Part shown: piece after piece, positions 3,936 to 61,202 of the stretch | Layout of the letters: each line of letters begins with the position of its first letter | Position numbering within the stretch: the first letter of the stretch is position 1 | The notes under the pieces: generated by a model | The model's input: only the letters and a program-made list of their open reading frames with translations | Told to the model about the DNA's origin: nothing | Database searches by the model: none | Assembly (NCBI GenBank): GCA_020350425.1 | Contig: CP070716.1 | Location: 1,232,564 to 1,296,563 of the forward strand | Reading direction: 5' to 3' | Length of the DNA stretch: 64,000 nt | Source of the DNA: Gemmatimonadota bacterium | GTDB lineage: Bacteria; Gemmatimonadota; Gemmatimonadetes; Gemmatimonadales; GWC2-71-9 | Translations under genes and position numbers: made by a program

Positions 3936-3986
3936 CGCTTGGGCTAACTTGCGCGCCGGATCAACCGGCCACCCCACTCCGTTCCT

Positions 3987-4613: not shown

Positions 4614-4623
4614 GGATACTGGG

Positions 4624-5790: not shown

Positions 5791-5847
5791 CCGCCCGCGC
5801 TCCCGTGTGGGCGGGCGCTCGCACGGCATGCGGGGCGGACGAAATGC

Positions 5848-5872
5848 GGGGCCGGGCACCGAGCCCGGCCCC
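5848..5872. terminator. GC hairpin between convergent genes (candidate bidirectional terminator)
   Basis: GGGGCCGGGC-accga-GCCCGGCCCC: perfect 10-bp stem, 5-nt loop, no clear U-tract. Confidence 0.45.
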
Positions 5873-5878
5873 GTCGCA

Positions 5879-6805: not shown

Positions 6806-6900
6806 GCGGCTGAAACTGCGGTGCCGCCCGGACCCGGACAAGGAGGGCCGCGATCGGGTTTCCGGGGCGGGCGGGCGGGCGGTGGGCCCTCTCCCCCGGC

Positions 6901-8328: not shown

Positions 8329-8559
8329 GGGCTTCCCGGATGCAGGGTTGGCGGACGGATCGCCCCAAGCTAGCGGTCGGCGACGGGGCTGCCAACATGG
8401 CCGGCGCCCGAGCCTGGGGAGGCTCCCGGGAGCCGGATCGGCGTCGCTCAAGTGTCACTTGACGGGCTGCCGCACCGCGCCGCAATTTCCGGGCGCCCTT
8501 ATGAACCCCGCAGTTTTCGTACATCGCTAGCGGCACAATCCAAGAAGGAGAGGTACTCC

Positions 8560-11500
8560 ATGCGCTTGCTGGTTCGTGCGTGCGTCGCCGCAGGAGCTTG
8601 CGTGCTCCTGGCGGCCGCGGTTGCCGGGCCGTTGACGGCCCAGGGCGTGACCACGGCAGCCGTACGTGGCACCATCGTGGACGAGGCAGGGGCACCCGTC
8701 GAAGGGGCCAACCTGACCCTCACCAACACCGCCACAGGGCAGCGGTACGCCGGTGTGTCGCGCGGCGACGGCCGGTATAACATCGAGAACGTAGCGGTAG
8801 GCGGTCCCTATGTGCTGGAAGCGCGCGCGCTCGGCTACCAGGCGTCCCGCCGCGAGGGGTTCTCGCTTGCACTGGGCCAGGCGCTCGAGCTCAACTTCGA
8901 CATGAGCCGAGCCGTTGTGGTGCTCGAGGCCATCACGGTCACGGCCGAGGAACAGGATCCCCTGACGGCGGTCTCCCGCACGGGGACCAGCACGTTCGTG
9001 TCGGACAGCGCCATTCGGCGGCTGCCGACCCTGAACCGCAACTTCACCGACTTCGTGATCACGTCACCGCAGGTCGCGAACGCGGCGGGCCTCTCCTACG
9101 GCGGCGGCCACCGCAAATTGAACAACATCCAGATCGACGGGACGTCCAACAACGACCTGTTCGGCCTGGGCGATACGGGCCAGCCGGGCGGCCAGGTGGA
9201 CGCCAAGTCCATCACGCTCGAGGCAGTGAAGGAGTATCAGGTACTCATCGCGCCGTACGACGTGCGGCAGAGCGGGTTCAGCGGCGGGCTGGTGAACGCG
9301 GTAACGCGCCACGGAACGAACACGTGGCACGGATCGCTCTTCTGGTACTATCAGCACGATCGCTTCGTGCGCGATACGCTCGTCTCGAAAGTCGGTGAGG
9401 AAGTTGTCTCGGAGTCGGCGTTCGGGAAGTTCCGTCAGCATCAGCAGGGATTCCGGCTGAGCGGCCCAATCATCCGCGACAAGCTGATGTTCTTCGTGGC
9501 GGGCGAGTGGCAGACGCGCGACGTGCCGAACAGCGGCATCGCGGTCGGACGGGAGAGCCCGGGTCTGACGGGGATCGCGCCCGACTCGGCGCAGCGTGTG
9601 GTGGAGATCTTCGAGAACGTGTACGGCACGAATCCGGGATCCCCCAACGAGCTGACGCTCAACACCCCCAACCGGAACATCTTTGCCCGCCTCGACTGGC
9701 AGATGAGCAACAACCACCAGTTGACGCTCCGCTGGAACCACGTGAAGGCGTCCGACGACATCCTGTCGCGCGGTAACGCCGGCTTCTACGGCTACAGCTC
9801 GTTCAACTACGCCATCAACAACAACAGCAACTCCTTCGCCCTCCAGCTGAACTCGAACCTGGGCGGTGGCAAGTTCTACAACGAGCTACGCGTCGGCTGG
9901 CAGCGGATCCGGGACCGGCGCGCGCCGCAGGACCCCCTGGCTCGCGACAGCGTCGCCATCAAGCCGCAGATCGAAGTCCGCAACTCCAGCTTTATCGATC
10001 CGACCCAGCCGAGCGTGTTCAACCAGTTCGTGATCGGCGGTGACCGCTTCTCGCACCGCAACGAGCTGGACCAGGACATCTTCGAGCTGGACGACGCGCT
10101 GACGTGGGCGACCGGGGCGCACACCCTGACGTTTGGAACGCACAACGAGTGGATCACCTTCCGGAACCTGTTTTTCCACTCGGCCGACGGGTACTGGCGC
10201 TTCAACACGCTTGCCGACCTGGAGGCCGGCACCCCGGCGTTCTACCGCACGCAGATTCCCTACTCGGACGCGGCGGCGGGCGTGCCGGGCAGCCTCGTGA
10301 AGGACGTGCCGGTGGCCGACTTCGGCGTTCTCCAGCTGGGCCTGTACGCACAGGACCAGTGGGAGGTTACCCGTAACCTCCGCGTCACGCTCGGGCTGCG
10401 GGTGGACGTGCCGGTCACGCTGGAGTCGCCGGCGTACAACGGCCTGGTGGATTCGACCCTGGGGATTCGCACGGACGACGTCCCGACGGGCAACATCCAC
10501 TGGTCGCCGCGCGTCGGCGTGAACTGGGATCTGATGGGCACCCGTGCGACGATCGTGCGCGGCGGCGCGGGGTTGTTCACCGGCCGCATGCCGTACGTGT
10601 GGCTGAGCAACGCCTACACGAATACCGGGCGCGAGGTGCTCGAGGTCAACTGCACCGGGGCGGAGATCCCCGTATTCGACGAGTCGGTGTTCCAGAATGC
10701 CCCGACCGGCTGTCGCACCACCAGCGGAGTGTCGGTGCCTTCGGCCCAGGTGAATGTGTTCGATCCCGGCTTCAGGTTCCCGCAGTACATCAAGGCGTCG
10801 CTCGCGGTGGACCAGCGGCTGCCGTGGGACATGCTGGGCACGGTCGAGTTCCTCTACACGCGGGGCGTAAACACCATCCTGCAGCGGGAAGAGAACCTCG
10901 TGCAGACGCCGATCGCCACGAACAGCGAAGGCCGCATGATGTTCGGCACGCTGAATCCCGCCAACGGCGACGCGACGCCGCAGCGCCTCACCGACCAGCT
11001 GCCGCAGGTGATCAACCACACCAATGCCAACAAGGACTGGTCGTACCAGATCACGGCGCAGCTGCAGAAGCGCTTCGGCCAGGGCTTCGAGTTCAACGCC
11101 GGGTACACCTATTCGAAGGTGCGCGACCTGGCGAGCCTCACGTCCAGTATCGCCAGCTCCAACTTCGGGTTCAGCCCCGTGGCCAAGGGCGGCAACCCGA
11201 ACGACCGCACCCTGGGCATCTCGACGTGGGAAGTGCCGCACAAGATCTCGGTGAGCGGTACGGCGAACATCAACATCCCGAACCTGCCGACCTCGTTCAC
11301 GGTGATCTACGTCGGGCAGTCGGGGCTCCCGTACACCTGGACGATCGACGGCGACGCCAACGCCGATGGCTACGAAGCGGCCAACATCGGCGGGCGGCGC
11401 AACGACATCGTGTACGTACCGCAGGCGAGCGGCACGGACATCACGATGACGAGCGCCAATGACCTCACGGCGTACAACGCGCTCATCGAGAGCGAGCCCT

Positions 11501-11850
11501 GCCTGGTCGAGGCGCGGGGCACGATCCCCGACAAGAACACTTGCCGCAACCCCTGGTTCAACCGGCTGGACGCCAACATTCGGGTTTCGCTCTACGCGCT
11601 GGGCGGCGGCGCGCACAACTTCTCGCTCGTGTGGGATGTGTTCAACGTGCTGAACCTGATGAACGGCGAGTGGGGCCAGTCCAAGACCGTTGTGGGCTTC
11701 AGCGACGACATCCTGCAGATCGTGGGCTACGACACGGCTAACGATCGGCCGGTCTACCGCTACGCCGGACCGGACCCCGTATCGAAGTACACGTTCTCGA
11801 ATTCGTTTTCCCGCTGGCGCATGCAGTTCGGCCTGCGATACGACTTCTGA
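8560..11850 (+). CDS. Oar-like TonB-dependent outer-membrane receptor with carboxypeptidase-regulatory-like N-domain
   Basis: AAGGAGAG RBS then ATG 8560. Signal peptide ...AGPLTA|QG. RGTIVDEAGAPVEGANLTLTN domain, plug region, about 1100 aa, terminal ...FGLRYDF (C-terminal Phe). Confidence 0.85.
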   Translation: MRLLVRACVAAGACVLLAAAVAGPLTAQGVTTAAVRGTIVDEAGAPVEGANLTLTNTATGQRYAGVSRGDGRYNIENVAVGGPYVLEARALGYQASRREGFSLALGQALELNFDMSRAVVVLEAITVTAEEQDPLTAVSRTGTSTFVSDSAIRRLPTLNRNFTDFVITSPQVANAAGLSYGGGHRKLNNIQIDGTSNNDLFGLGDTGQPGGQVDAKSITLEAVKEYQVLIAPYDVRQSGFSGGLVNAVTRHGTNTWHGSLFWYYQHDRFVRDTLVSKVGEEVVSESAFGKFRQHQQGFRLSGPIIRDKLMFFVAGEWQTRDVPNSGIAVGRESPGLTGIAPDSAQRVVEIFENVYGTNPGSPNELTLNTPNRNIFARLDWQMSNNHQLTLRWNHVKASDDILSRGNAGFYGYSSFNYAINNNSNSFALQLNSNLGGGKFYNELRVGWQRIRDRRAPQDPLARDSVAIKPQIEVRNSSFIDPTQPSVFNQFVIGGDRFSHRNELDQDIFELDDALTWATGAHTLTFGTHNEWITFRNLFFHSADGYWRFNTLADLEAGTPAFYRTQIPYSDAAAGVPGSLVKDVPVADFGVLQLGLYAQDQWEVTRNLRVTLGLRVDVPVTLESPAYNGLVDSTLGIRTDDVPTGNIHWSPRVGVNWDLMGTRATIVRGGAGLFTGRMPYVWLSNAYTNTGREVLEVNCTGAEIPVFDESVFQNAPTGCRTTSGVSVPSAQVNVFDPGFRFPQYIKASLAVDQRLPWDMLGTVEFLYTRGVNTILQREENLVQTPIATNSEGRMMFGTLNPANGDATPQRLTDQLPQVINHTNANKDWSYQITAQLQKRFGQGFEFNAGYTYSKVRDLASLTSSIASSNFGFSPVAKGGNPNDRTLGISTWEVPHKISVSGTANINIPNLPTSFTVIYVGQSGLPYTWTIDGDANADGYEAANIGGRRNDIVYVPQASGTDITMTSANDLTAYNALIESEPCLVEARGTIPDKNTCRNPWFNRLDANIRVSLYALGGGAHNFSLVWDVFNVLNLMNGEWGQSKTVVGFSDDILQIVGYDTANDRPVYRYAGPDPVSKYTFSNSFSRWRMQFGLRYDF

Positions 11851-11938: not shown

Positions 11939-13021
11939 CTACGTCGGCGCCCGCCGGAACATCCACAGCCCGGTGACGCCGAACAGGATGTTGGGTACCC
12001 AGGCTGCGAGCGTCGGGGGTACCAGACCGCCCGAGCCGATGGTGCGGGAGAGCTGGACCAGTACCAGGAACACGATGGCGGTGCCGAGGGCCACCGCCAC
12101 GCCCCACGCGCCGCTCACTCGCGGGCCGCTGGCCACGAACGGAATGGCGAAGAACGCGATGATGATGCAGGTGACCGGGACGGCGATCTTCAGAGCCTGC
12201 TCCACTCGCAGGAGGCGTCCGTCGCCGCCCGACCGCTCTAGGGCATCCACGTACCGCCCCAACTCGGCGTAGCGCATCTCCTGGGGTTTCTTGGGTTCCA
12301 CCAGGAGCTCGGCGGGGCCCTCCACCAGGCTGCGCAGCCGCATCGAGTCGAACGCAAAGGCCACCTCGGTCGGTGCTCCGGTGATCACCCGCAGGCGGCC
12401 GTCGGCCAGCATCCAGCGAGCCTCGGTGGAATCCCAATGCGCGCGGCGCGCCTGCACGGCGAGCGTCGGATAGGCCGGGCCGGTGCCCTCCCGTTCCAGC
12501 ACCAGGTCCCGCATCTGGGAGCGCATGGCGTTGAGTTGCCGCACCTGGTAGACCCATCCCTCTTCGGCGCGGTACACGAAGTTGTAGCGGGCTGTCTGGG
12601 ACCGGCGCGGTTCCTCCTCCAGCAGCTCGAGTTGGCGGCGCGTGGCCGGCGGCGTGAGCTCACCGATGATCAGCCCCAGCCCGGCGGCCACGGTGGCCGC
12701 GAACAGCACCGGGAGCACCACCCGATGCATGCCGCGGCCGGACGCCTTGGCCGCCGTGAGCTCGGAATGGCGATTCATGTTTCCCACGCTGAACACCGTG
12801 GCGAACAGCACGGCCGCGGGGAGGATGAGAAAGATCCGGTCGGGTAGGCTGAAGAAGTACCCAAGCGCGATCGCGGTGGGTGCCAGGTCCTTGATGAGGT
12901 ACTCGTCCAGCTTCTCCGCGAGCTCGATGATGATGACGAATAGCGGGAGTCCCAGCGCCGCGAGCACGAAGATCTTCACCCACTCCTTCAGAAGGTATCG
13001 GTCCAGGATGCGCGGGATCAC
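11939..13021 (-). CDS. LptF/LptG-family LPS export permease (360 aa)
   Basis: GTG 13021 (VIPRILDRYLLKEW...) overlaps the upstream stop (GTGA). YjgP/YjgQ N-terminus and 6-TM layout. The 5' 237 codons of ORF 11939..13732 are off-frame over the neighbour. Confidence 0.75.
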   Translation of the reverse strand: MIPRILDRYLLKEWVKIFVLAALGLPLFVIIIELAEKLDEYLIKDLAPTAIALGYFFSLPDRIFLILPAAVLFATVFSVGNMNRHSELTAAKASGRGMHRVVLPVLFAATVAAGLGLIIGELTPPATRRQLELLEEEPRRSQTARYNFVYRAEEGWVYQVRQLNAMRSQMRDLVLEREGTGPAYPTLAVQARRAHWDSTEARWMLADGRLRVITGAPTEVAFAFDSMRLRSLVEGPAELLVEPKKPQEMRYAELGRYVDALERSGGDGRLLRVEQALKIAVPVTCIIIAFFAIPFVASGPRVSGAWGVAVALGTAIVFLVLVQLSRTIGSGGLVPPTLAAWVPNILFGVTGLWMFRRAPT

Positions 13022-14511
13022 GGCGCGCCCCGCTTCCTGAGTCGGCGCCACAGCCGCACCGGTAGCGGCGGGGGCGGGGTCGTCCCCTGGCGCTGTACCA
13101 ACCACAGGCCGCCGAGTCCGAGCGCTCCCATCAGGATGTTCGAGGCATACATGGCCACGAACGGGTGGACGACCAGCCGGTTGGCCAGGGACTCGCCGGC
13201 GATGAGCCCGACGTAGTACACTGCGAAGACCGCCATTCCGGCTCCCAGCACCAGGCCCATGCCGCCGCGGGGGAAGCGCAACGCCAGCGGCACGCCCACG
13301 AGCACGAACACGATGCACGCCAGCGCGATCGACCCCTTCTTGTGGAGCTCCACGAGGTAGACCGACTCGCGCGTGAGGGCGGTCTTGGAGCGGTCCCGCA
13401 GGAGCCGTATCTCGTTGGAGCGATCGCGCGGACGCACGCGGCGCACGACCGGAGCGGCCTCGTAGCCCTCGTCGATGCCCACGTCCGGGCGCCGCATGGC
13501 CGAGTCGCGCTGCGCTTCCTGCGCTTCGAGCTCGGTCGGCGTGATCCACGACTTGACCAGGGCCAGCGCCCGGCAGTAGAGGTTGCGGCGCGGGGGGGAG
13601 ATCGCGGTATCGACGGGAATCTCCGGGAGGCCCACCAGCGCGCGGAGGCCGTTGAGTTCGGCGCCGTCGGCCTGCCGCTCGAGGCGGAGCCGGTCGCGCC
13701 GCGCGTCGAGCACGACCTCCTCCAGCTGGCACACCCCCAGCTCGCGGTCGCCCCGGTAGTCGTCCGTCTCCCGGCGCACGAACTCGCTGCCCACTCCCCG
13801 GACGAGGATCAACTGGCGGGTGAAGTCGGTTTGCTGGAAGGTACGGGGGTCGTTCCGATCGAACTCGTGGATCGAGCCATCGTACAGGGTGAAGTACAGA
13901 TCCTCCTGATTGGGGGCAAAGGCGAGGTATCCACTATCGGCGTAGATCGTGCGGTTGCGCACCGCCTCCTCGAGGTTGTACAGGGTAACGTCGCGCAGCT
14001 GGTAGGTTGCCGGGTCGATGTGCGCCGTGCGCAGCATGACCCGCCCGCTCTGGACCTCGTTGATCACGTGCGGCTTGATGGAGAAGGTCGGCTTGGTGCG
14101 GTAGATGTCGGTCATCAAGCTGCGCAGCCGGTGATTGGTCCGGGGCAGGATCTGATCGTTGAACACGAAGGAGATCAGGGCCACGAGGGTGCCGGCGACG
14201 AGGAGCGGCCGCAGCAGCTGCCCGAGGGAGACGCCGCCGGCCCGCATGGCGGTCACCTCGCGGTCGCCCGACATAGTGCTCATCGTGTAGAGCACGGCCA
14301 CCAGCACGGACATCGAGAGGGTGATCGCGATGAGGAACGGGATGGTGAGCAGGAAGAACTCCAGGATCACCGACCAGGGGAGGCCCTTGCCCATCAAGTC
14401 GCCGAGCTTCCGCGCGATCTGGCGGATCAGCTCGAAGCACGTCAGCGCCGAGAGGGCGAAGAAGAAGGGCCGCGCGTGCTGCTTCAGCAGATACCTGGTC
14501 AGGATCCTCAT
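13018..14511 (-). CDS. LptF/LptG-family LPS export permease, enlarged (497 aa)
   Basis: MRILTRYLLKQHARPFFFAL... is a YjgP/YjgQ-type N-terminus. Long charged insertion in the periplasmic domain. Confidence 0.75.
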   Translation of the reverse strand: MRILTRYLLKQHARPFFFALSALTCFELIRQIARKLGDLMGKGLPWSVILEFFLLTIPFLIAITLSMSVLVAVLYTMSTMSGDREVTAMRAGGVSLGQLLRPLLVAGTLVALISFVFNDQILPRTNHRLRSLMTDIYRTKPTFSIKPHVINEVQSGRVMLRTAHIDPATYQLRDVTLYNLEEAVRNRTIYADSGYLAFAPNQEDLYFTLYDGSIHEFDRNDPRTFQQTDFTRQLILVRGVGSEFVRRETDDYRGDRELGVCQLEEVVLDARRDRLRLERQADGAELNGLRALVGLPEIPVDTAISPPRRNLYCRALALVKSWITPTELEAQEAQRDSAMRRPDVGIDEGYEAAPVVRRVRPRDRSNEIRLLRDRSKTALTRESVYLVELHKKGSIALACIVFVLVGVPLALRFPRGGMGLVLGAGMAVFAVYYVGLIAGESLANRLVVHPFVAMYASNILMGALGLGGLWLVQRQGTTPPPPLPVRLWRRLRKRGAP

Positions 14512-14605
14512 CGCACGCCGTAACTTACTTGCCTGTAATGATTTGAGCCGGCATTATATTGCCGATTCTCACCGCTAACAAGGTATACCCCGCTTTCAGG
14601 GCAAC

Positions 14606-17600
14606 GTGTCCCGCCGCTGCGCAGCGCTCGCACTGACGACCGCGATCCTCGTGGCGGGTCCCGTCGTGGCACAGGAGCCCGGCGCCCCGGCGCCGCGGCT
14701 GCGTATCCGGCTCTCGGAGGAGCCGCTCTCTCTGAGAAGATACGTTGCCCTCGAGCCCGGCGGGTGGCTGGGACCGAGCACGACCCCGGAGTTGGCGGGG
14801 CAACGGTGGGCCGCAGCGACGCGAGCGCTGCTCGCCCGCCGCCGCGATGCTCGGTACCAGGCGCGCCTGCTGGCAGCCCTGTCTCCTCCCGCGCCGGCTC
14901 CACGCGACACCGTACGCCGACGGATTCCGATTCCGCGGCCTGAGGAGATCGCCGAGCTCGAGGTGGAGGAGCCGGCGACCCTCGAAGCGTTGGAGCGCTA
15001 CGCCGATCTGGGGCTCGATCTCCAGTCACGCCTCGTGATGAAGTTCGACCGGCTGCGGAATGCGCGCTGCACCGCCACCGACGTCAACACCCCCGGCTCC
15101 GGGTGCCAGGACGGGTTTCCCACGCCGAGCTTCGATGAGGACTTCCGCGTGCTGGCCGGGGGGATCGTCGCCGATCGGTTCCACGTGAACGTGGACTTCG
15201 ATACGCAGCGCGAGTTCAGCGTCAACAACAACATCAACTTCTGGTATCAGGGCCTCGAAGACGAGATCCTGCGCCGAGTGGAAGTGGGCAACGTCACCTT
15301 CCGTGCCCCACCATTCCGGTTCATCACCGCCGCGATCCCGGCCAATTCGTTCGGTGTCCAGGCGGAGGCCCAACTCGGTCCGTTGGACGTGAGCACGATC
15401 TTCGCGCAGCAGAAGGGCTCGGCGGTGCGCACTCGCACCTTCCGCGTGGGGGACGCCACCACGCAGCCGGTGTCGTTCGAGGCGCGCGATATCGACTTCG
15501 AGAGTGGCCGCTTCTTCTTCGTGGTCAATCCGCGTGCGCTGCCCGGATACCCGGCGCTCGACGTGCTCGACATCGTGCCCGAGATCCTACCGGACACGCT
15601 GCGCCCCACCGCGGTGCGAGTCTACCGGCTGCGGGCCCAGGTAGGGCGCGACGAGGACAACCCCAACCTGGGCGGCATCGAGGCCGTCGCCTTGCGGAGC
15701 GACAGCCCGCAGCGCGTTGGCCCCTTCAGCTGGGAGCTGCTGGTCGAGGGCCGCGACTACTACCTGGATCCCTCCGGAGTGTGGTTCGCGTTGGCCAATC
15801 GGCTCGGCACCGACGACTTCCTCGCCGTCTCCTACACGCGGGCCTCGGGCGATACCGTGGGCACGTTCCCGGCGGTGAACGGGACGGGCGACACGCTCGA
15901 GCTGGTGTACGAGCCGCGCCGCGGCCCCGGCGTGCCCACCTACTTCCACGAGATGCGCAACGCATACCGGATCGGCGGGAGCGGGATCACCCGGAACACG
16001 ATTCGGCTCGCGATCGTGGTGAACCAGTCCGAGCAGCCGCTCGGGGGGAGCGGCACCTACCTGTCACGGCTGGGACTGGCGGCCGCCGTCGATCCGTCCA
16101 CCATCGACGAGTTCAACCGGGTCTTTCCCCGCACGCGCGATCCCAACAATGGGGAGCCGGTGCATGACTACTTCGTGGTGTTCCCCCACCTCACTCCGTT
16201 CGCCGACTCCACCGTGCTCGCCCCAGGGGACCGCAATGACTCGCTCTACCGCACCCCCACCTATCTGCTGGTGAGCGAAGCGCCCCCGCCGCTCTTTCAT
16301 CTCCGCCTCGCGTACGAGGCGAGCGGAGCCGGGGATCGCTCCAATCTGAGCCTGGGCGCGCTCCAGGTGCGCGAGGCGAGTGAGAAGCTGTTCATCGGGG
16401 AGCGGGAGCTCGTGCGGGGACGGGACTACGAGATCGATTATGAGCTGGGTCAGGTGCGCTTTCTCAGCCCGGACTCGCTCTTCTTCGGCCCCACCGAGGT
16501 GCGCGCCCAGTTCGAGGAGAACCAGCTGTTCGACTTCGCGCCCAAGACCATCTTTGGGCTCGCCAGCACCTACCACCTGGGCCCCGAGAGCCGCCTCTAC
16601 GGCATCGGGTTGTTCCAGCGCGACCGGACCAGCCTCACACGGCCCCAATTGGGGTTCGAGCCGCAGGCTGGGTTCATGGGCGGCCTGGGCGCCGAGCTGC
16701 AGTTCCGCGGCGAAGGGCTGACGCGGGTGCTGGATGCGCTGCCCCTGATCGAGACCAGCGTCCCCTCGCGCCTGAATGTCACCGGGGAAATCGCGGTGTC
16801 CAATCCGAACCCGAACAGCACCGGCATCGCGTACGTGGAGGACTTCCAGCAAGAGGCCGCCTTCAAGGTTCCGCTCGGGGAGCGGGAGTTTCAACTGGGA
16901 AGCACGCCGTCCTCGGGTCACGGCCTGCCGCCGAGCTATCTCGCAGGAGGGACCGACTTCTCCGACCAGGACGCCGTCCCGCTGGTGTGGCAGAACCTGG
17001 TACAGACGCCGGCCGGCGTGCGGGAGTTCCGGCCGCAGGAGATCGACAGCACCATCGTGCTCACCGGCACCGGCATTTCGATCGAGCCGACTCTGTGGCT
17101 CACCCTCAAGCCAGACACGGTGGGTGGCGCGCCCGATCCGATCACGGGGGCGCCCCGCTGGCTCCTGCCCCACACGCCGGGGCCCCGCTGGCGCAGCCTG
17201 ACGCAATCGTTCGGGTTCGGCTCGGGGGTGGGGGTCGACTTCTCCCGCTCGGAGTTCATGGAGTTCTGGGTGCTCGAGGACGCCGCGATGCAGGCCCGGC
17301 AGCAGAGCGCCGTGCTGGTGATCGATCTCGGCACGGTGTTCGAGGATGCGGCCCGTCCGGCGCCCACCTCGTTCCGTGTTCAGGGCAGCGACACCCTGTT
17401 CACGGGGCTCCAATTCGAGGGCGCCGGCGTACTCGACAGCGAACGCGATTCGCTCACGGCAGTGTACAACGCGCTCGGAGACGACGTCGGGATTCGGGGA
17501 GATCTCGTGGGCACGATCTTCGACGAGACGAGCGGAGCGACCGTGAGCGACCTCCCCTTGTGCAGCCTGGAGGACATCGCGGGCCTGCCCACCCTGCCCC

Positions 17601-20600
17601 TCGGCAGCCTCAGAGCCACTTGCACGAGGCGAAATCGTCGGCTCGACACCGAGGATCTGGACGGCGATAACCGGCTGGACGTTGCCGTCGGCACCACGAC
17701 GGAAGACTTCCTCCGATACACGTTCTCCATCGGGGACGCCCGCTACTTCGTGAGGGATGGGGTGACGCACTTCGACGAGCAGGGGCGCCCCATGACATGG
17801 CGGCTCTACCGTATCCCGCTGCGGATCGACTCGCTGCAGGTGGGCCAGCCCAACCTGCGGCAAATCGAGGCCCTGCGTCTCACGCTGGTCACGCCTGACG
17901 TGGGAGGGATCGAGGAGGAGTTCTGGATCACGCTCGCGCGGATGCGCTTCGTGGGAGCGCCGTGGGTCAAGCGCGCCGCCACGCCCATCGCGGGCATCTC
18001 GGGGAGCACGGGCGAGCTCCACGGCGAGGTCCGTGCGACCACGGTCAGCACCGAGGACGAGCAGCTCGGGTACGAGTCGCCCCCGGGGACCACCGATTCG
18101 CCGGAGGAGACCAGCCAGGCCTTGCAGTTCGGGGTCACGCAGGTGAACGAGAAGGCTCTGCGTTTGCTGGCGGAGGATCTCAGGGCCGGTGAGCGGGCGG
18201 AGGCGCTGGTGCGTTTCAGTGCCCAGGCTGACAGGAACTTCCTCGCATACCGGCGGCTGCGCGTTTGGGCGCGCGGCCGTGGGCCCGGATGGGCCGAAGG
18301 CGACCTCCAGTTCTTCGTCAAGATCGGCCAGAACGAGGACAACTTCTACATGTATCGGGCGCCGGCCCAGACCGGGAGCTGGGAGCCGGAAGTGGTCGTG
18401 GATCTGGAGCGGTGGCTCGAGCTCCGGGCGCAGATCGAGTCGGCATGGCTCGGCGGCGCGCCACCCGCCGGGGCGTCGGAGTGCGGCGGTGACTCGACCG
18501 CCTACGTGGCGTGCGACGGACCGTATCTCGTGCACGTGGGCGACCCCGGAGTCGCACCGCCCAACTTGGCGCGGGTGTCCGAAGTGGCGGCCGGGATGCT
18601 ACGCGTGCAGGAGACCGCCGCCCTAGGCACCGCGGAGTTGTGGGTGAACGACATCCGGCTGGACGACGTTGCGGGGGACGCAGGCATTGCGGCGGCCATC
18701 GACGTGCACCTCGCCGCCGCCGACGTCGCCGAGCTCGATTTCGGCTACTCGCTGCGGGACGACCGGTTCCGCCAGTTCGACCAGCGCCCCAGCTACGTGA
18801 CCGATGCAGCCACGCGCTTCGCGATGCTATTCCGTGTGGACAAGCTGCTGCCGCAGGCTTGGGGGTTGAGCGTGCCCGTCACGTTCCGCCACACCAAGAC
18901 CCGTGCCGACCCGTTCTTCTTGCAGAACACCGACGTGCGCGCCGATCGGCTCAGCGACCTCCGACGGCCGAAGGGCACGGTGACATCGTGGGATGTCACC
19001 GTGCGGCGCGCAAAGCGCGGCGAGACGACCATCGAGCGAACGCTCGTGGACCCGGTCACCGTCCAGGTCCGGGGAGACAAGGCGTCGGACGCGACGTCGT
19101 TCACGAGCGCACGGACCCGCAACGACGGCGTGCGGGTGGTCTACGACAACGTGCCCGGTCCCAGGACGGTGCAGGGAGCGCCAGGCTTCCTGATCAACCT
19201 CGTGAACTCGCTGCCGGACTGGATCAAGGAGAGTGAGTTCGGCAAGGCGCTGCGCAACTCCCGGCTGCGGTGGAATCCGTTCCGGCTGACCTACGCCTCG
19301 ACGTTCACCCACAACCGGACCGACCGCCTCACGTTCCGTGTTCCGGTGGAGCTGGAGAGCGACACGGCGCTGGCGCCGCTCCCGAGCGTCGTACACACGT
19401 GGCGCAACGAGCTCGGATTCGACTTCCGCCCCTACTCGTCGTTCGCGATCCGCGTGAACTGGTCGAGTACGCGCGATCTGCAGGACTACGGGGATACCAC
19501 GGAGGTCGGCCGGCTGCTGCAGCAGGAGCGCGGCACCATGTTTGGATGGGATATCGGGTTCGAGCGGTGGCACACGCTCACCACCGGCATCAACGTCGCG
19601 CCGGTGGTGAGCAGCTGGCTGCGCCCGCGCTTCGTGTTTTCGACGCGATACCACTTCACCCGCGACCCGAACCAGCGCGCACCGGTCGTGGCGGGCGACT
19701 CGACGCCCAAGCCCCCGGAGACGGTTGGCAACGCACGCCACGCCGAGTTCGGCGCGTCGCTCGACGTCGCTCGTCTGGTGCGAGGGCTCGCCGGCGATGC
19801 GGGCGTGCTGACCAAGGTCTTCGCGATTCTGCTGCCGGCCGACCTCACGCTTGCACGCGACCTGCGATCCACCTTCGACCGCGCCCAGTTCGACGCCGGC
19901 CTCGGGTACCGTCTGGCGCTGGGCGGGTTGGGCGCCTTCCGCTCGCAGGGGGGGGGACCTGCCACGGCGACGGGCGACCTCGAGAGCGTGATTCTCGCTG
20001 GCGGCCTGCGCCTCCCGCTCGGCGGCCTGTTCCGGTTGAGCTACCGCAACCTGGCCAACGCGGCGTGGTCGCGACGGGGCGAGGTGCAGACCCAGGTGGT
20101 GCAGCGCAGCAGGGAGTGGCCGTCGCTGAACTTCTCCTGGGCGTACAGTCCGTCGTCGGGTATCCGGCGGGTGATCTCCAGTGTCTCCGCTGGGCTGCAG
20201 TATCGCCTGATCCGCACGTCGAGCGTGCAGCCGCTTTCCGCACTCGGCGGGAGCGACAGCGTGGTGACCGAGAACAACTCCACATTCGTGACGCCGACGC
20301 TGACGCTGTCGTGGTCCCCGGGCATCACCACGGCGGTGCAGTATTCGAACTCCAAGACGGAGAGCGTCACCTCCGGCAACCGCACCGAGAGCGAGCGCAG
20401 CGCGTGGGGCGCGAGCGCGAACTTCGGGTGGAACCTTCCGAGGAGTCTCGTGCGGTCCGCCAATCGCGTCCAGACGACGATCGCGTTTAATTCCTCTACC
20501 CAGGCCGTTTGCCTCCTGCAAACCGGCGCGGTCGGCTGCCGCAGCGTGTCGGACAGCCGCCGGGATCAGCTGGACATCCGGCTGGATACGGGATTCACGC

Positions 20601-20728
20601 AGAGCCTGCGAGGGGGGATGACGTTCAGCTACGTGTTGACGGACCAGCGGCACACGTCGCAGACCCTGTCTCAGATGGTGTTCACGATCTACCTGGACAT
20701 CAACTTCGTGTCGGGCCAGGTCCGATGA
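14606..20728 (+). CDS. sprA: SprA-like giant outer-membrane protein (T9SS translocon family), 2040 aa
   Basis: Signal peptide ...AGPVVA|QEP. The block FHVNVDFDTQREFSVNNNINFWYQGLEDEILRRVEVGNVTFRAPPF...SFGVQAEAQLGPLDVSTIFAQQKG matches my memory of the SprA N-terminal family signature (YDT..F.F.N...L.Y.G.EDEI...E.GNV...LFG...QFG...Q.G). Beta-rich throughout. Confidence 0.65.
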   Translation: MSRRCAALALTTAILVAGPVVAQEPGAPAPRLRIRLSEEPLSLRRYVALEPGGWLGPSTTPELAGQRWAAATRALLARRRDARYQARLLAALSPPAPAPRDTVRRRIPIPRPEEIAELEVEEPATLEALERYADLGLDLQSRLVMKFDRLRNARCTATDVNTPGSGCQDGFPTPSFDEDFRVLAGGIVADRFHVNVDFDTQREFSVNNNINFWYQGLEDEILRRVEVGNVTFRAPPFRFITAAIPANSFGVQAEAQLGPLDVSTIFAQQKGSAVRTRTFRVGDATTQPVSFEARDIDFESGRFFFVVNPRALPGYPALDVLDIVPEILPDTLRPTAVRVYRLRAQVGRDEDNPNLGGIEAVALRSDSPQRVGPFSWELLVEGRDYYLDPSGVWFALANRLGTDDFLAVSYTRASGDTVGTFPAVNGTGDTLELVYEPRRGPGVPTYFHEMRNAYRIGGSGITRNTIRLAIVVNQSEQPLGGSGTYLSRLGLAAAVDPSTIDEFNRVFPRTRDPNNGEPVHDYFVVFPHLTPFADSTVLAPGDRNDSLYRTPTYLLVSEAPPPLFHLRLAYEASGAGDRSNLSLGALQVREASEKLFIGERELVRGRDYEIDYELGQVRFLSPDSLFFGPTEVRAQFEENQLFDFAPKTIFGLASTYHLGPESRLYGIGLFQRDRTSLTRPQLGFEPQAGFMGGLGAELQFRGEGLTRVLDALPLIETSVPSRLNVTGEIAVSNPNPNSTGIAYVEDFQQEAAFKVPLGEREFQLGSTPSSGHGLPPSYLAGGTDFSDQDAVPLVWQNLVQTPAGVREFRPQEIDSTIVLTGTGISIEPTLWLTLKPDTVGGAPDPITGAPRWLLPHTPGPRWRSLTQSFGFGSGVGVDFSRSEFMEFWVLEDAAMQARQQSAVLVIDLGTVFEDAARPAPTSFRVQGSDTLFTGLQFEGAGVLDSERDSLTAVYNALGDDVGIRGDLVGTIFDETSGATVSDLPLCSLEDIAGLPTLPLGSLRATCTRRNRRLDTEDLDGDNRLDVAVGTTTEDFLRYTFSIGDARYFVRDGVTHFDEQGRPMTWRLYRIPLRIDSLQVGQPNLRQIEALRLTLVTPDVGGIEEEFWITLARMRFVGAPWVKRAATPIAGISGSTGELHGEVRATTVSTEDEQLGYESPPGTTDSPEETSQALQFGVTQVNEKALRLLAEDLRAGERAEALVRFSAQADRNFLAYRRLRVWARGRGPGWAEGDLQFFVKIGQNEDNFYMYRAPAQTGSWEPEVVVDLERWLELRAQIESAWLGGAPPAGASECGGDSTAYVACDGPYLVHVGDPGVAPPNLARVSEVAAGMLRVQETAALGTAELWVNDIRLDDVAGDAGIAAAIDVHLAAADVAELDFGYSLRDDRFRQFDQRPSYVTDAATRFAMLFRVDKLLPQAWGLSVPVTFRHTKTRADPFFLQNTDVRADRLSDLRRPKGTVTSWDVTVRRAKRGETTIERTLVDPVTVQVRGDKASDATSFTSARTRNDGVRVVYDNVPGPRTVQGAPGFLINLVNSLPDWIKESEFGKALRNSRLRWNPFRLTYASTFTHNRTDRLTFRVPVELESDTALAPLPSVVHTWRNELGFDFRPYSSFAIRVNWSSTRDLQDYGDTTEVGRLLQQERGTMFGWDIGFERWHTLTTGINVAPVVSSWLRPRFVFSTRYHFTRDPNQRAPVVAGDSTPKPPETVGNARHAEFGASLDVARLVRGLAGDAGVLTKVFAILLPADLTLARDLRSTFDRAQFDAGLGYRLALGGLGAFRSQGGGPATATGDLESVILAGGLRLPLGGLFRLSYRNLANAAWSRRGEVQTQVVQRSREWPSLNFSWAYSPSSGIRRVISSVSAGLQYRLIRTSSVQPLSALGGSDSVVTENNSTFVTPTLTLSWSPGITTAVQYSNSKTESVTSGNRTESERSAWGASANFGWNLPRSLVRSANRVQTTIAFNSSTQAVCLLQTGAVGCRSVSDSRRDQLDIRLDTGFTQSLRGGMTFSYVLTDQRHTSQTLSQMVFTIYLDINFVSGQVR

Positions 20729-21612
20729 GGTGGATTACGGGGCTGATCCTGGTGGCCATCGGCTGTGGCGCCGGAGGCCGGGGGCCGCGCGAGTTCGACG
20801 GTGAAGCGGCACTGGGGTACGTGGAGACGCAGCTCGCCTTTGGGCCGCGGGTTCCCAACACCGAGGGGCATCGCCAAACGGGCGATTGGATCCTGGAGCA
20901 GCTCCGCCTGCGCGCCGATTCGGTGGAGGTCCAGGAGTTCACGCACGTCACGGTCGACGGTGACACCCTGCACCTGCGCAACTTCATCGGGCGGTTCCGA
21001 CCGGAGGTGAGCGAGCGCATCCTGTATCTCGCCCACTGGGATACCCGACCGCGGGCGGATCGCGACGCCAACCTGGGCCGCCAGCGCCTGCCGGTGCCGG
21101 GCGCCAACGACGGCGCCTCGGGCGTGGCCGTACTGCTGGGCGTGGCCGACGTGCTCGAGCGGCGTCCCTCGGACTTCGGCGTAGACCTCCTGTTCGTGGA
21201 CGGCGAGGACTACGGCGACTTTGCGCAGGGCGCGGATGTGCTCCTCGGCTCGCGGCACTACGCGGCCAGCGTCGACGCCGGTGCCTTTCCGCTGTACGCC
21301 GTCGTGTGGGACATGGTGGGAGACCGCGACCTGGAGATCTACCAGGAGGGCAACTCCGTCACTCGGGCTCCCGAGGTCGTGGACCGGGTCTGGAGTCGTG
21401 CTCGGGACCTGGGGTACAGCCGGGTTTTCCGGCCGTCGGTGGGGTACACGATGACTGACGATCACGTGCCGCTGCTGGAGGTGGGCATTCGCGCCATCGA
21501 CGTGATCGACTTCGACTACCCCCACTGGCATACTGCGGACGACACGCTCGACAAGGTGAGCGCGGCGTCGCTCCAAGTGGTGGGAGACGTCGCGGTAGCC
21601 CTGCTGCGCTAG
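20725..21612 (+). CDS. Glutaminyl-peptide cyclotransferase-like M28-fold lipoprotein
   Basis: ATG 20725 overlaps the sprA-like stop (ATGA). Lipobox LVAIGC. Motifs AHWDTRP, GANDGASGVAVLL, FVDGEDYG, VWDMVGD, MTDDHVPLL (DDH.P(F/L) as in animal/Bacteroidetes-type QC). Confidence 0.7.
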   Translation: MRWITGLILVAIGCGAGGRGPREFDGEAALGYVETQLAFGPRVPNTEGHRQTGDWILEQLRLRADSVEVQEFTHVTVDGDTLHLRNFIGRFRPEVSERILYLAHWDTRPRADRDANLGRQRLPVPGANDGASGVAVLLGVADVLERRPSDFGVDLLFVDGEDYGDFAQGADVLLGSRHYAASVDAGAFPLYAVVWDMVGDRDLEIYQEGNSVTRAPEVVDRVWSRARDLGYSRVFRPSVGYTMTDDHVPLLEVGIRAIDVIDFDYPHWHTADDTLDKVSAASLQVVGDVAVALLR

Positions 21613-21704
21613 CCGGACCTGGCGCGGGGCCCGGCGCGCGGTGATGAGACTACGCCGTCGTTCGAACGGTTATGCGCCGGGGGGCAGGAGCCACAGCGTG
21701 AGCC

Positions 21705-22322
21705 GTGCTCTCCTCCGACGACCGCAAGGCAGCCTTGACGCTCTTGGGCTTGGCGGCGGCCGGCCTCCTGGTCCGGGCGCTTGCAGGTGGCGGCAGTCCC
21801 GCCGGGGCCGTGGCCTATCGGGAGGTGACCGCCGGGCGCCCCGAGCGGGACGCGGTAGCCGAGCAGGCGGCGCGGATGGCGCGCCCGTTGAGCCGCGGCG
21901 AGACGATCGACCCGGACCGTGCGCCCGCAGCGGAGCTCGCCCGATTGCCCCGCATCGGCCCGGGGCTCGCGGCACGCATCGTCGACGATCGGGAGGCAAA
22001 CGGCCCGTTCGGCTCTTTGGAGGAGCTGGATCGCGTGGTGGGTGTGGGGCCGGCCGTGCTCGACGCGGTGCGCCGTCACGTGGTCTTCTCGGCGCCGGCC
22101 GCACGCTCCGCGACGTCCCAAGTGCCCGAGATTGTGACGCTTAACACGGCTTCTGCCCGGCAGCTCGCTAGACTACCCGGCATCGGGCCGGCGCGAGCCA
22201 AGGCGATCGTTGAGGATCGACAACGCCATGGACCGTACCGGCGGCTGGACGAGCTTACGCGGGTGCAAGGTATTGGGCAGGCGACGGTGGAGCGCCTGCG
22301 GGGGCTGGTGCGCGTGCCTTGA
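21705..22322 (+). CDS. comEA: ComEA-like membrane-anchored DNA-binding protein with two tandem helix-hairpin-helix modules
   Basis: N-terminal TM (LTLLGLAAAGLLV). Two copies of L(A/P)RLPxIGPxxAxxIVxDRxxxGP(F/Y)xxLxEL.RV.G(V/I)G. The start codon is uncertain. Confidence 0.7.
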   Translation: MLSSDDRKAALTLLGLAAAGLLVRALAGGGSPAGAVAYREVTAGRPERDAVAEQAARMARPLSRGETIDPDRAPAAELARLPRIGPGLAARIVDDREANGPFGSLEELDRVVGVGPAVLDAVRRHVVFSAPAARSATSQVPEIVTLNTASARQLARLPGIGPARAKAIVEDRQRHGPYRRLDELTRVQGIGQATVERLRGLVRVP

Positions 22323-22346
22323 CACCCCTTGGGGTGGTCATACTTT
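22319..22346 (+). promoter_or_regulatory. Candidate sigma70-type promoter of pilBTC
   Basis: TTGACA (22319-22324), 16 nt, TACTTT (22341-22346). Lies 67 nt upstream of the pilB ATG. Confidence 0.35.
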
Positions 22347-22412
22347 TGACCGTTACTTTGTTGCGCCCAAAGGACTTGCAGTGATCTTCGACGTTTCCCA
22401 CCACGGCAACAT

Positions 22413-24119
22413 ATGACGACGGCCCCAGCGAGCACCGAGCGTCTCGGCGATCTGCTCATCCGCGAAGGGCTGATCACCCGCGAGCAGCTCCAGCAGGCCT
22501 TGGAGCAGCAGCAGGGATCGGGCATGCGGCTGGGCTACACCCTGGTCAAGCTCGGGATGGTGCAGGAGATCGAGATCACCAAGATGCTGGCCCGGCAGTA
22601 CCGGGTTCCGGCCGTCGATCTCTCCCGCTTCGAGGTCGACGAGAAGATCATCAAGCTGATTCCGAACGAGGTCGCCCTGCGGCACACCGTGCTGCCGCTG
22701 AAGCGCGAGGCCCGCACGCTCACCGTGGCGATGGCGGACCCGACCAACCACAGTGTCCTGGACGACCTCAAGTTCATCACGCGGTTCGACATCTTCCCGG
22801 TCATCGCGGGCGAGTACACGCTGCGCACCGCGATCGAGCGGTACTACGAGCAGACCGATGCGCAGCTCGAGTCCCTCCTCAAGGACATGGAGGCGGAAGA
22901 TCTCGAGATCGTCGAGGAGGAGGACGAGGAGGAGGGGAGCGCAATCCAGATCGCGGATGACGCCCCGGTCGTGAAGCTGATCAACGGCATTATGACCGAC
23001 GCCGTGAAGCGCGGCGCCAGTGACATCCATATCGAGCCGTTCGAGAAAGAGATCCGTGTGCGCTACCGGATCGACGGTTCGCTGCAGGAAGTCATGAAGC
23101 CTCCGGTGAAGTTGAAGGCCGCGCTCACGAGCCGCGTGAAGATCATGTCCAACCTGAACATCGCCGAGCGACGGGTGCCCCAGGACGGGCGGATCAAGAT
23201 GAAGATGGGGGATCGGGTGATCGACTTCCGCGTCTCCACCCTCCCCGTGATCTTCGGCGAGAAGATCGTGCTGCGAATCCTGGACAAGGGGAACCTGACC
23301 CTCGACCTGACGAAGTTCGGGTTCGAGCCCAAGGCCGAGAAGGACCTCATGCGCAACATCCTGAACCCGTACGGCATGGTGCTGGTCACCGGCCCGACGG
23401 GGTCGGGGAAGACCACGACGCTGTACTCTGCGTTGTCGCGCGTGAACAACATCGATGTGAATATCATGACCGCCGAGGACCCCGTGGAGTACAACATCCA
23501 CGGCATCAACCAGGTCCTCGTGCGCAATGAGATCGGGATGACGTTCGCGGCCGCCCTGAAGGCGTTTCTGCGGCAGGACCCGAACATCATCATGGTGGGA
23601 GAGATCCGCGATCTCGAGACCGGCAGTATCGCCATCAAGGCAGCGCTCACCGGCCACCTCGTACTCTCCACGCTGCACACCAACGACGCCTCGTCCACCA
23701 TTACCCGTATGATCGACATGGGGATCGAGCCCTTCAACGTGGCAAGCGCGGTCAACCTGATCGTGGCCCAGCGGCTCGTTCGGCGGATCTGTGGCAACTG
23801 TAAGGCAGAGTGCGAATACAGCGAGGAGGAGCTCGGAGCCCTCGGGATCGACGCCAAGCACGCGGGCGAGATCCAGCTATACAAGGGCGAGGGCTGCGAT
23901 ACCTGCGGCGGGACCGGCTACAAGGGGAGGCAGGGGATCTACGAAGTGATGGCGCTCTCTCCCGAGCTCCGCCGCATGATCCTCCGCGGCTCTTCATCGG
24001 ACGAGCTCAAGCAGACCGCGATCGAGGAGGGAATGTTGACGCTGCGCATGGACGGCATGGTGAAGCTCCAGCGGGGCGTCACGACACTTGAAGAGGTCGT
24101 CAAGGAAACCGCGGAGTAA
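22413..24119 (+). CDS. pilB: Type IV pilus extension ATPase PilB (GspE family) with MshEN-type N-domain
   Basis: Walker A GPTGSGKTT, Asp/His boxes, tetracysteine CGNC...CDTCGGTG, N-terminal tandem RLGxxL..G...L...L..Q motifs. Confidence 0.9.
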   Translation: MTTAPASTERLGDLLIREGLITREQLQQALEQQQGSGMRLGYTLVKLGMVQEIEITKMLARQYRVPAVDLSRFEVDEKIIKLIPNEVALRHTVLPLKREARTLTVAMADPTNHSVLDDLKFITRFDIFPVIAGEYTLRTAIERYYEQTDAQLESLLKDMEAEDLEIVEEEDEEEGSAIQIADDAPVVKLINGIMTDAVKRGASDIHIEPFEKEIRVRYRIDGSLQEVMKPPVKLKAALTSRVKIMSNLNIAERRVPQDGRIKMKMGDRVIDFRVSTLPVIFGEKIVLRILDKGNLTLDLTKFGFEPKAEKDLMRNILNPYGMVLVTGPTGSGKTTTLYSALSRVNNIDVNIMTAEDPVEYNIHGINQVLVRNEIGMTFAAALKAFLRQDPNIIMVGEIRDLETGSIAIKAALTGHLVLSTLHTNDASSTITRMIDMGIEPFNVASAVNLIVAQRLVRRICGNCKAECEYSEEELGALGIDAKHAGEIQLYKGEGCDTCGGTGYKGRQGIYEVMALSPELRRMILRGSSSDELKQTAIEEGMLTLRMDGMVKLQRGVTTLEEVVKETAE

Positions 24120-24122
24120 TCG

Positions 24123-25268
24123 ATGACGGCAGATCAAGGCAAGGGTGGGGATTCCTCGGTCAACCTCCGCGAGCTGCTGGAGGAAATGATCAAGCGCGAC
24201 GCTTCGGACCTGCATATCACGGCAGGTGAGCGTCCCAAGGTCCGGGTGGATGGTGAGATCACCAACTCGCATGTGGAACACGTTCTCACGCCCAAGGAGA
24301 CGCTCCAGATCGCCTATTCCGTGCTGACGGACAATCAGAAGAAGCGGTTCGAGAACGAAGACGAGCTCGACTTCTCCTTCGGTATCCAGAATCTCGCACG
24401 ATTCCGCGGCAACTGCTTCAAACAGCGCGGCTGTGTCTCGCTCGTCATCCGGCAGATTCCGTTCTCGATCAAGACCTTCGACGAGTTGGGTCTCCCACCG
24501 GCGTTGCGCAAGCTCGCCGACCGTCCCAGAGGACTGGTGCTCGTGACCGGCCCAACCGGGTCGGGTAAGTCGACGACGCTCGCCGCGATGATCGACAAGA
24601 TCAATCGCGAGCGACGGGGGCACATCATCACGATCGAGGATCCGATCGAGTTCATCCACCGGCACCAGGGATGCATCGTAAATCAGCGTGAGGTGGGGAC
24701 GGACACCAAGTCGTTCGGGAACGCGCTGAAGTATGCTTTGCGGCAGGATCCGGACATCGTGCTCATCGGCGAGATGCGCGACCTGGAGACGATTCAGGCG
24801 GCGCTGACGATCGCCGAGACCGGGCATCTGGCGTTCGCGACACTGCACACGAACTCGGCGGCCGAGACGATCAATCGAATCATCGATGTGTTTCCCTCCC
24901 ACCAACAGTCCCAGGTGCGGGCGCAGCTCGCCTTCGTGCTGGAAGGCGTGGTGACGCAGATCCTGCTCCAGCGGGCCGGTGGCAAGGGTCGCGTGATGGC
25001 CTGTGAGGTCATGGTGGCCACGCCGGCAATTCGTGCCCTGATCCGGGACGACAAGGTGCACCAGATCTACTCGGCCATGCAGGCCGGCAAGAAGCATGGC
25101 ATGCAGACGCTGAACGACTCGCTGTATCAGGAATACATGGGCCGGCATGTGACGCTCGAGGAGTGTTTGCGGGTGGCACCGGACCAGAACGAGTTCCTGC
25201 GGATGATTGGGGAGGACGTCCCCGAGGCGGAAGGGGCGGGGGCGCGGGCCGCGGCGGCCCGGCGGTAA
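24123..25268 (+). CDS. pilT: Twitching-motility retraction ATPase PilT
   Basis: GPTGSGKSTT, TIEDPIEF, AHLAFATLHTNSA-like core, ~380 aa, immediately after pilB. Confidence 0.9.
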   Translation: MTADQGKGGDSSVNLRELLEEMIKRDASDLHITAGERPKVRVDGEITNSHVEHVLTPKETLQIAYSVLTDNQKKRFENEDELDFSFGIQNLARFRGNCFKQRGCVSLVIRQIPFSIKTFDELGLPPALRKLADRPRGLVLVTGPTGSGKSTTLAAMIDKINRERRGHIITIEDPIEFIHRHQGCIVNQREVGTDTKSFGNALKYALRQDPDIVLIGEMRDLETIQAALTIAETGHLAFATLHTNSAAETINRIIDVFPSHQQSQVRAQLAFVLEGVVTQILLQRAGGKGRVMACEVMVATPAIRALIRDDKVHQIYSAMQAGKKHGMQTLNDSLYQEYMGRHVTLEECLRVAPDQNEFLRMIGEDVPEAEGAGARAAAARR

Positions 25269-26894: not shown

Positions 26895-26939
26895 CCTTGT
26901 CTGGGGCGGACGTCGTGAACCGCCCGCACGGCGGGTGAG

Positions 26940-31704: not shown

Positions 31705-31712
31705 GGAGCCCC

Positions 31713-60081: not shown

Positions 60082-60092
60082 GAGGACGTACG

Positions 60093-61202
<1,110 letters not shown>

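Follow-up and report, generated by a model that had tools for sequence, protein, structure and literature searches.

The T9SS (type IX secretion system) outer-membrane translocon, named SprA in Flavobacterium johnsoniae and Sov in Porphyromonas gingivalis, has a literature centred on Bacteroidota. Structures are available for F. johnsoniae SprA (6H3I, 6H3J, 8GL6, and 8GL8), whose partners are PorV, PPI, Plug, and SprE. In the survey by Abby et al. (2016), the T9SS was found only in Bacteroidetes (PMC4793230). [quoted passage not shown] A review lists Gemmatimonadetes among the FCB phyla in which a T9SS "may be present" (PMC11285876). Beyond one "may also be present" sentence, our literature searches yielded nothing on genes for a motor, a shuttle, or cargo in this phylum. 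Here we describe a sprA gene in a 64,000-nt stretch of DNA from a Gemmatimonadota bacterium (contig CP070716.1, positions 1,232,564 to 1,296,563; hereafter, the window). The gene (14606–20728, plus strand) encodes a full-length SprA/Sov ortholog and is translationally coupled to a glutaminyl cyclase gene. We favour its reading as the Gemmatimonadota SprA translocon, with partners encoded elsewhere, as is usual for T9SS genes.

Two kinds of background bear on this locus. The first is gene order. In Parabacteroides distasonis, a genuine T9SS bacterium, porP-porK-porL-porM-porN form one operon and sprA is found on a separate record, flanked by ruvA and the gene of a TonB-dependent receptor; the TXSScan model of the T9SS handles four components as scattered loners (PMC4793230). 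An FCB sprA operon with genes for VanZ-2, GcvH-like, and TonB-C proteins has also been published (eLife 2025, PMC12419801). The second is the "Q-rule" of Bacteroidetes, by which Gln is the first residue of most substrates of signal peptidase I and is cyclised by the glutaminyl cyclase PgQC. The authors of this rule noted its phylogenetic co-occurrence with the T9SS, which they left unexplained, and stated that orthologs of animal-type glutaminyl cyclases are highly enriched in Bacteroidetes; Gemmatimonadetes go unmentioned (PMC5837995).

Family and Fold of the 2040-aa Protein

The sprA gene was delimited from a mechanical list of open reading frames (ORFs), in which it starts with GTG and encodes 2040 aa. 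Its codon-position composition is of the coding type (GC content of 0.88 at third and 0.50 at second positions), and a 2040-aa gene was independently called at the same place on public contigs bearing the identical downstream protein. An exact-sequence look-up of the protein gave no match, probably because the GTG start had been translated as V.

The equivalog hidden Markov model (HMM) TIGR04189 of NCBIfam (T9SS outer membrane translocon Sov/SprA) matched the protein with 518.2 bits (cutoff 200, E = 5e-155). The Pfam model SprA_N (PF14349) matched with 43.2 bits (cutoff 27). The initial annotation had described a 2040-aa secreted protein with an N-terminal SprA signature and had proposed an HMM search as a check. 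The ORF, the signal peptide, and the family all held up. The confinement of the signature to the N-terminus did not: the strongest family matches span the protein, in blocks at aa 173–319, 379–915, and 1317–1729, and SprA_N itself is located at aa 1324–1438.

Comparison with solved structures pointed to the same family. A single-sequence search retrieved only F. johnsoniae SprA (6H3I/6H3J, E = 3.2e-30), and a profile of 20 family sequences aligned with chain A of 6H3I (E = 1.8e-53) in four collinear blocks between aa 173 and 1729, namely 173–319/168–313, 557–768/669–882, 881–924/1003–1049 (weak), and 1317–1729/1476–1895. By BLASTP, the protein is 22% identical to P. distasonis SprA (2472 aa) across 1254 alignment columns (E = 3e-31). 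As the 2040-aa chain exceeds the 1200-residue folding limit, it was modelled with AlphaFold (AF2) as two overlapping halves, using 43-sequence alignments. The model of the N-terminal half was mediocre (predicted local distance difference test, pLDDT, 61) and beta-rich; that of the C-terminal half was good (pLDDT 81, predicted template modelling score 0.65) and shows some 26 long strands in antiparallel arrangement. When each half was compared with the PDB by Foldseek, the top four matches were the SprA translocon entries 8GL8_A, 8GL6_A, 6H3I_A, and 6H3J_A, with best E-values of 4.7e-38 and 3.2e-29 for the two halves. The matches after these were 22–35 orders of magnitude weaker for both halves and, for the C-terminal half, were other very large outer-membrane barrels, including the S-layer barrel SlpA, MtrB, and TonB-dependent barrels. 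Because the curated HMM, the collinear profile match, and the retrieval of SprA entries by Foldseek all converge on this family, the family and fold assignment is secure.

The protein thus resembles F. johnsoniae SprA in its curated HMM family, in the collinear profile, in having it as the sole strong structural match for both halves, and in possessing a signal peptide, more than 2000 aa, and a beta-rich fold with long barrel strands. It differs in length, the residues it lacks falling chiefly, as judged from block offsets, between aa 319 and 557 (about 117) and within the last 300 (about 200); identity is roughly 20–30% in the alignable blocks. It is likewise homologous to P. gingivalis Sov and to P. 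distasonis SprA, whose gene also lies away from porKLMN.

The N-terminus, VSRRCAALALTTAILVAGPVVA|QEPG, reads by eye as a Sec (signal peptidase I) signal peptide (14606–14671, plus strand). Cleavage at the predicted site, VVA|Q, would leave Gln23 as the first residue of mature SprA, and this residue does not vary among the 43 SprA sequences from Gemmatimonadota that were aligned. The length and the signal peptide agree with the size above 2000 aa and the Sec export of the family, and the fold points to an outer-membrane location. The Gemmatimonadota family has eight invariant cysteines (C155/C167, C986/C1006, C1293/C1303, and C1969/C1978); since they fall in four close pairs, they suggest four conserved disulfides.

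An Operon of sprA and a Glutaminyl Cyclase Gene

The next gene (20725–21612, plus strand) encodes a lipoprotein glutaminyl cyclase of type II (animal type, M28 fold). Its ATG (20725) overlaps the sprA stop codon as ATGA, which couples the translation of the two genes. The gene carries the Pfam label Peptidase_M28, and a generic M28 aminopeptidase was considered and rejected, as the structure matches are glutaminyl cyclases. The best solved relatives were 6QRO_A (E = 4.5e-57, aa 23–290) and 6QQL_A (E = 7.5e-53), with the alignment covering aa 23–292; further matches were 7CJE and the glutamine cyclotransferases 4FUU/7D1D, and these relatives come from oral Bacteroidota and gut Bacteroidales. 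With full-length similarity and a lipoprotein signal (lipobox LVAIGC), the protein has the features of a type II glutaminyl cyclase, and the corresponding activity is predicted. It is a full-length homolog of P. gingivalis PgQC (PG2157; 6QQL), which also has a lipobox. Unlike in Bacteroidota, where a glutaminyl cyclase gene has not been reported to adjoin sprA or sov, the sprA–cyclase pair was present in every relative examined (L001–L005 and L039–L041; L numbers denote the loci retrieved in this work). Three short public contigs carry the identical, ATG-initiated cyclase in the gene order of the window.

A ComEA-like helix-hairpin-helix protein (21702–22322, plus strand; Pfam HHH_3, 124 bits) is encoded after the cyclase in all relatives, and its gene is possibly the last of the sprA transcription unit. 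It is followed by a terminator-like hairpin (22333–22354, plus strand), the only such site of the region; this is a consensus match, and the evidence is weak because sites of this kind are rarer than shuffled sequences predict.

Signal peptidase I sites were read by eye in three parts of the window (8560–8650, 14606–14680, and 45944–46010) and in L008, L009, and L010. The predicted sites of SprA, of an Oar-like receptor encoded in the window, of two Oar paralogs, and of two other exported proteins read A|Q, and that of PilQ reads A|T. A Gln at position +1 in exported proteins of Gemmatimonadota is only suggestive as a pattern; we do not claim a phylum-wide Q-rule because Oar-like proteins of Acidobacteriota (L011 and L014) show A|Q too. 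The sprA–cyclase operon links the enzyme of the Bacteroidetes Q-rule physically to the gene of the T9SS channel, and the translational coupling of the pair, together with the invariant Gln23, is a new detail.

Distribution and Gene Order in Gemmatimonadota

We found 705 homologs of SprA. The best 120 of the 705 were 53–85% identical to it and 1830–2090 aa long, and every homolog with a named source among these 120 came from Gemmatimonadales, Gemmatimonadota, or Gemmatimonadetes, under names such as [quoted passage not shown]. The closest relatives of the neighbouring Oar-like receptor, at 80–84% identity, likewise belonged to metagenome-assembled genomes (MAGs) of Gemmatimonadota; a search with this receptor, used to sample Gemmatimonadota loci, returned 11. 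In the NCBI taxonomy, Gemmatimonadota belong to the FCB group, in agreement with the occurrence of the SprA family in FCB bacteria.

Gene order around sprA is conserved. Upstream and divergent from it are genes for two lipopolysaccharide (LPS) export permeases on the minus strand: an lptF-type gene (13018–14511; Pfam LptF_LptG, 265 bits), arranged in the same way in L001, L003, L004, and L039, and an lptG-type gene (11939–13018), assigned from synteny and from a match to the NCBIfam model TIGR04408 (LptG) that, at 180 bits, is below the cutoff of 240. Downstream follow the gene labelled Peptidase_M28 (295–301 aa among the relatives), the comEA-like gene, and pilB-pilT-pilC. The block at 11939–25268 was compared with L001, L003, L004, and L039, and its order was stable from 53% to 85% SprA identity; the relatives sharing it have SprA proteins of 85%, 55%, and 53% identity and include a closed 5.5-Mb MAG genome. 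Genes for envelope biogenesis, a secretion channel, and pili or competence thus stand in one stable block around sprA.

Because this synteny is fixed among relatives at 53–85% identity, sprA is a vertically inherited core gene of the lineage and neither an odd extra copy nor recently transferred. The initial suggestion of a SprA paralog used differently fits poorly with a gene that is full length, scores above the equivalog cutoff, and keeps its synteny over this range of identity. Its companions differ from those in P. distasonis: ruvA–sprA–TonB receptor with a 2472-aa protein there, and lptFG opposite sprA–glutaminyl cyclase–comEA with a 2040-aa protein here. Like the published FCB sprA operon (PMC12419801), the present one stands outside a strict Bacteroidota context; unlike in that operon, genes for VanZ-2, GcvH-like, and TonB-C proteins are not adjacent, and gcvT (59937–61202), 39 kb off, appears unrelated.

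Searches for Other T9SS Components and Cargo

The Gemmatimonadota DNA searched comprised the window, about 0.27 Mb of partly redundant related loci, and two replicons of Gemmatirosa kalamazoonensis (1.11 and 1.04 Mb) that are part of a plasmid collection. Seeds for T9SS components were taken from the same collection, namely a Cardinium plasmid with gldK-like, gldM, and gldN-like genes and P. distasonis records. The latter (PLSDB NZ_OY725749.1, NZ_OY725757.1, and NZ_OY725768.1; L017 and L037), filed as P. distasonis "plasmid 4/23...", bear dxs, ruvA, sprA, and porKLMN and look like chromosome fragments filed as plasmids, a caveat on data quality. The Cardinium plasmid (NZ_HG422566.1; L016) has, at 5500–6000, an unannotated frame between the gldK-like gene and gldM with a GldL-like N-terminus (…YNIGAAVVILGAMFKLLNLPGG…SAFEP), which looks like a gldL that was overlooked or is truncated. 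GldK was discarded as a seed, as it cross-matches generic formylglycine-generating enzymes.

For cargo, two consensus probes for the type-A C-terminal sorting domain (CTD) were written; they scored 32.6 and 50.4 bits against TIGR04183 (cutoff 23), and 120 real sequences that one of them retrieved then served to build a type-A CTD HMM. Against the plasmid collection (E ≤ 1), the generic probe matched 33 records, all from Bacteroidota or Rhodothermota; many of these plasmids are annotated with a "T9SS type A sorting domain", and those of 35–400 kb bear one to four matches each. A scan of a metagenome collection for GldL used the exact motif common to Cardinium and Parabacteroides, back-translated with G/C-ending codons. 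It returned 19 stretches with a GC content of 0.48–0.635, and because every one of the 19 is a true porKLMN operon, the pattern is specific. The most divergent high-GC operon among them (L022, Ga0138256_10000209, 513–8413, GC 0.63) was examined as a Gemmatimonadota candidate and rejected, since it belongs to Flavobacteriales. After its gldL-gldM-gldN come further gldN-like and gldM-like genes, one of each, so that the T9SS motor/ring module is partly duplicated.

Several results weigh against reading sprA as part of a T9SS with the usual partners. No T9SS family was matched by the other sizeable ORFs of the window in Pfam and NCBIfam scans. The type-A CTD HMM found nothing in the window or in the related loci, and the CTD probe gave zero matches at E ≤ 1 on the 2.15 Mb of Gemmatirosa replicons. 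Searches by tblastn with real PorP, PorK, PorL, PorM, and PorN seeds, and with GldM, gave zero matches in the window and related loci; on plasmids, real PorP, PorL, PorM, PorN, and GldM seeds matched Bacteroidota only and none of the Gemmatirosa replicons, with PorP/SprF paralogs on 13 Bacteroidota records. No Gemmatimonadota-like operon was present among the 19 GC-biased stretches of the GldL scan. On the side of the protein, SprA is about 360 aa shorter than the F. johnsoniae protein (2040 versus 2403 aa), and against the 36 strands expected of the barrel the C-terminal half-model gives about 26, the full count and closure being beyond half-models.

Further searches were less pointed. PorV, PorU, SprE/PorW, and SprT/PorT were not seen in the Pfam and NCBIfam scans of window ORFs or in the Pfam-annotated flanks of L001–L004, and no wider seed search was made for them. 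A high-GC CTD probe run on a large protein database yielded labelled matches from Krumholzibacteria, Eisenbacteria, Poribacteria, and Edwardsbacteria, never from Gemmatimonadota; as only 196 candidates were scored and most were unnamed fragments, this search is uninformative for the phylum. The neighbourhood of one CTD-like protein (P0149), on a 698-kb contig, contained neither T9SS genes nor a hint of its taxonomy.

The initial annotation had remarked on the lack of visible T9SS genes in the 64 kb and on the non-Bacteroidetes look of the surroundings, and had proposed either a dispersed T9SS or a SprA paralog used differently. The lack is borne out by the ORF scans, the Por searches, and the CTD search of the window. 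Given that sprA is unlinked from porPKLMN in P. distasonis and that TXSScan treats components as loners, we regard missing neighbours as uninformative and a lone sprA as the rule. The context is indeed not that of Bacteroidota, and there is nothing odd in it, as Gemmatimonadota are an FCB phylum in which SprA is expected. Whether a dispersed T9SS exists here or SprA is used otherwise is a fair question. The negatives above are mutually consistent, but their base is one housekeeping locus, a pair of megaplasmids, and a search for an exact motif. With them, our confidence that this lineage has a canonical T9SS falls to somewhat better than even and is not overturned.

Competing Explanations and Proposed Mechanism

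The main competitor is that SprA serves a reduced or non-canonical export route, with barrel and cyclase kept, the type-A CTD signal and GldKLMN absent or replaced, and other cargo or partners. All cargo and motor searches in Gemmatimonadota were negative with probes that proved sensitive and specific on replicons of Bacteroidota and Rhodothermota; the labelled high-GC CTD matches, as said, came from other phyla; Abby et al. saw no T9SS outside Bacteroidetes (PMC4793230); and the operon partners here (cyclase and comEA-like gene, with lptFG opposite) are not those of the published sprA-vanZ-gcvH-TonB-C operon (PMC12419801). The sample behind these negatives is, however, small and biased, consisting of one family of housekeeping loci and two megaplasmids with no Gemmatimonadota chromosome, the GldL scan demanded both an exact motif and G/C-ending codons, and the large CTD search scored few and mostly fragmentary candidates. 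Moreover, the review counts Gemmatimonadetes among possible T9SS phyla (PMC11285876), and elsewhere SprA is known only alongside the T9SS, with Chlorobiota lacking both (PMC12611786). We therefore hold a non-canonical route to be possible but not the expected outcome. Its general form, that Gemmatimonadota universally keep the SprA–cyclase operon without type-A CTD cargo and GldKLMN, the channel being stand-alone or differently partnered, seems to us rather unlikely.

A barrel of SprA fold without a secretory role, serving for instance as an anchor (structural or for a surface layer), as a platform for adhesins, or as a channel for uptake, with lptFG nearby as a sign of envelope biogenesis, is very improbable. 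The divergent pairing with lptF and lptG is conserved, and the next structural matches of the C-terminal half include SlpA, MtrB, and TonB-dependent barrels; these matches are nonetheless at least 22 orders of magnitude weaker than those to SprA, and the sequence matches the translocon family at equivalog level. The adjacency to lptFG is a shared gene order of divergently transcribed units and as such does not demonstrate co-regulation. A recent horizontal gain from Bacteroidota, or contamination in binning or assembly, has nothing in its favour beyond the Bacteroidota-centred literature of the family, and it is effectively refuted: sprA agrees in GC and GC3 with the remainder of the window, its product shares only about 22% identity with SprA of Bacteroidota as against 53–85% within Gemmatimonadota, and the flanks are conserved.

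Under the preferred reading, a SprA translocon with dispersed partners, the SprA precursor would cross the inner membrane by Sec, and signal peptidase I would expose Gln23, which the co-expressed inner-membrane lipoprotein cyclase would turn into pyroglutamate. The β-barrel assembly machinery (BAM) would then place SprA, folded as a capped barrel with roughly 36 strands, in the outer membrane. Folded periplasmic cargo would traverse its lumen, most likely as in Flavobacterium, and a PorV-like shuttle, a plug, a GldLM-type motor, and a GldKN ring would be encoded elsewhere in the genome.

Other Features of the Window

The surroundings of sprA are as the initial annotation had described them: GC content is uniformly rich (0.62–0.73), the Oar-like receptor combines a CarboxypepD_reg domain with a barrel, and the type IV pilus cluster includes PilS and the sigma54 regulator PilR. 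The rest of the window consists of housekeeping genes and this pilus cluster. It carries genes for a ccm ABC transporter, an extracytoplasmic function (ECF) sigma/anti-sigma pair, an M24 peptidase, a Na+/H+ antiporter, and the Oar-like receptor, then lptG, lptF, and sprA with its two downstream genes. It continues with pilB, pilT, pilC, PPK2, pilS, pilR (sigma54), a glycosylation-like block, two pilin genes, and pilMNOPQ, and it holds aroC, topA, trmFO-like, hslU-like, pyrB, and gcvT genes and a second sigma54 activator gene.

The Oar-like receptor (8374–11850, plus strand; CarboxypepD_reg and OMP_b-brl_4, about 1096 aa) is encoded between the Na+/H+ antiporter gene and lptG in the window and in L005–L007. 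L001, L003, and L004 have no such gene at this position, and we therefore read it as a lineage-specific insertion. Between pilC and pilS, inside the pilus cluster, stands a gene for a PPK2 polyphosphate kinase with two domains (26919–28418). The stretch from pilR to the pilins (31686–39365) encodes a membrane protein (1023 aa, with a domain like spermine synthase), a GT2 glycosyltransferase, a TPR membrane protein, and, at about 890 aa, an ORF product that NCBIfam matches only very weakly (E = 0.0067); it may be a module for glycosylation of pilins or of the envelope. The two type IV pilin genes stand in tandem (39604–39987 and 40068–40478, plus strand) and encode nearly identical N-terminal helices (FTLIELLIVVVIIGILAAIAIPKF). 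The best match of the first is to the Myxococcus-type PilA model, at 62 bits weak and far below the cutoff of 400.

Significance

The gene itself is mostly a matter of routine annotation, since it extends a known translocon family to a sister phylum in which SprA was already tabulated and is auto-annotated in public MAGs. Almost nothing has been published on a working T9SS in Gemmatimonadota, which are abundant soil and freshwater bacteria, and in our limited searches of the phylum the channel was found and cargo or motor were not. If SprA were stand-alone or differently partnered there, the T9SS translocon would have a second mode of use, outside Bacteroidota. The conserved sprA–cyclase operon, together with the invariant Gln, offers a genetic handle on the co-occurrence of the Q-rule and the T9SS that had been left unexplained (PMC5837995).

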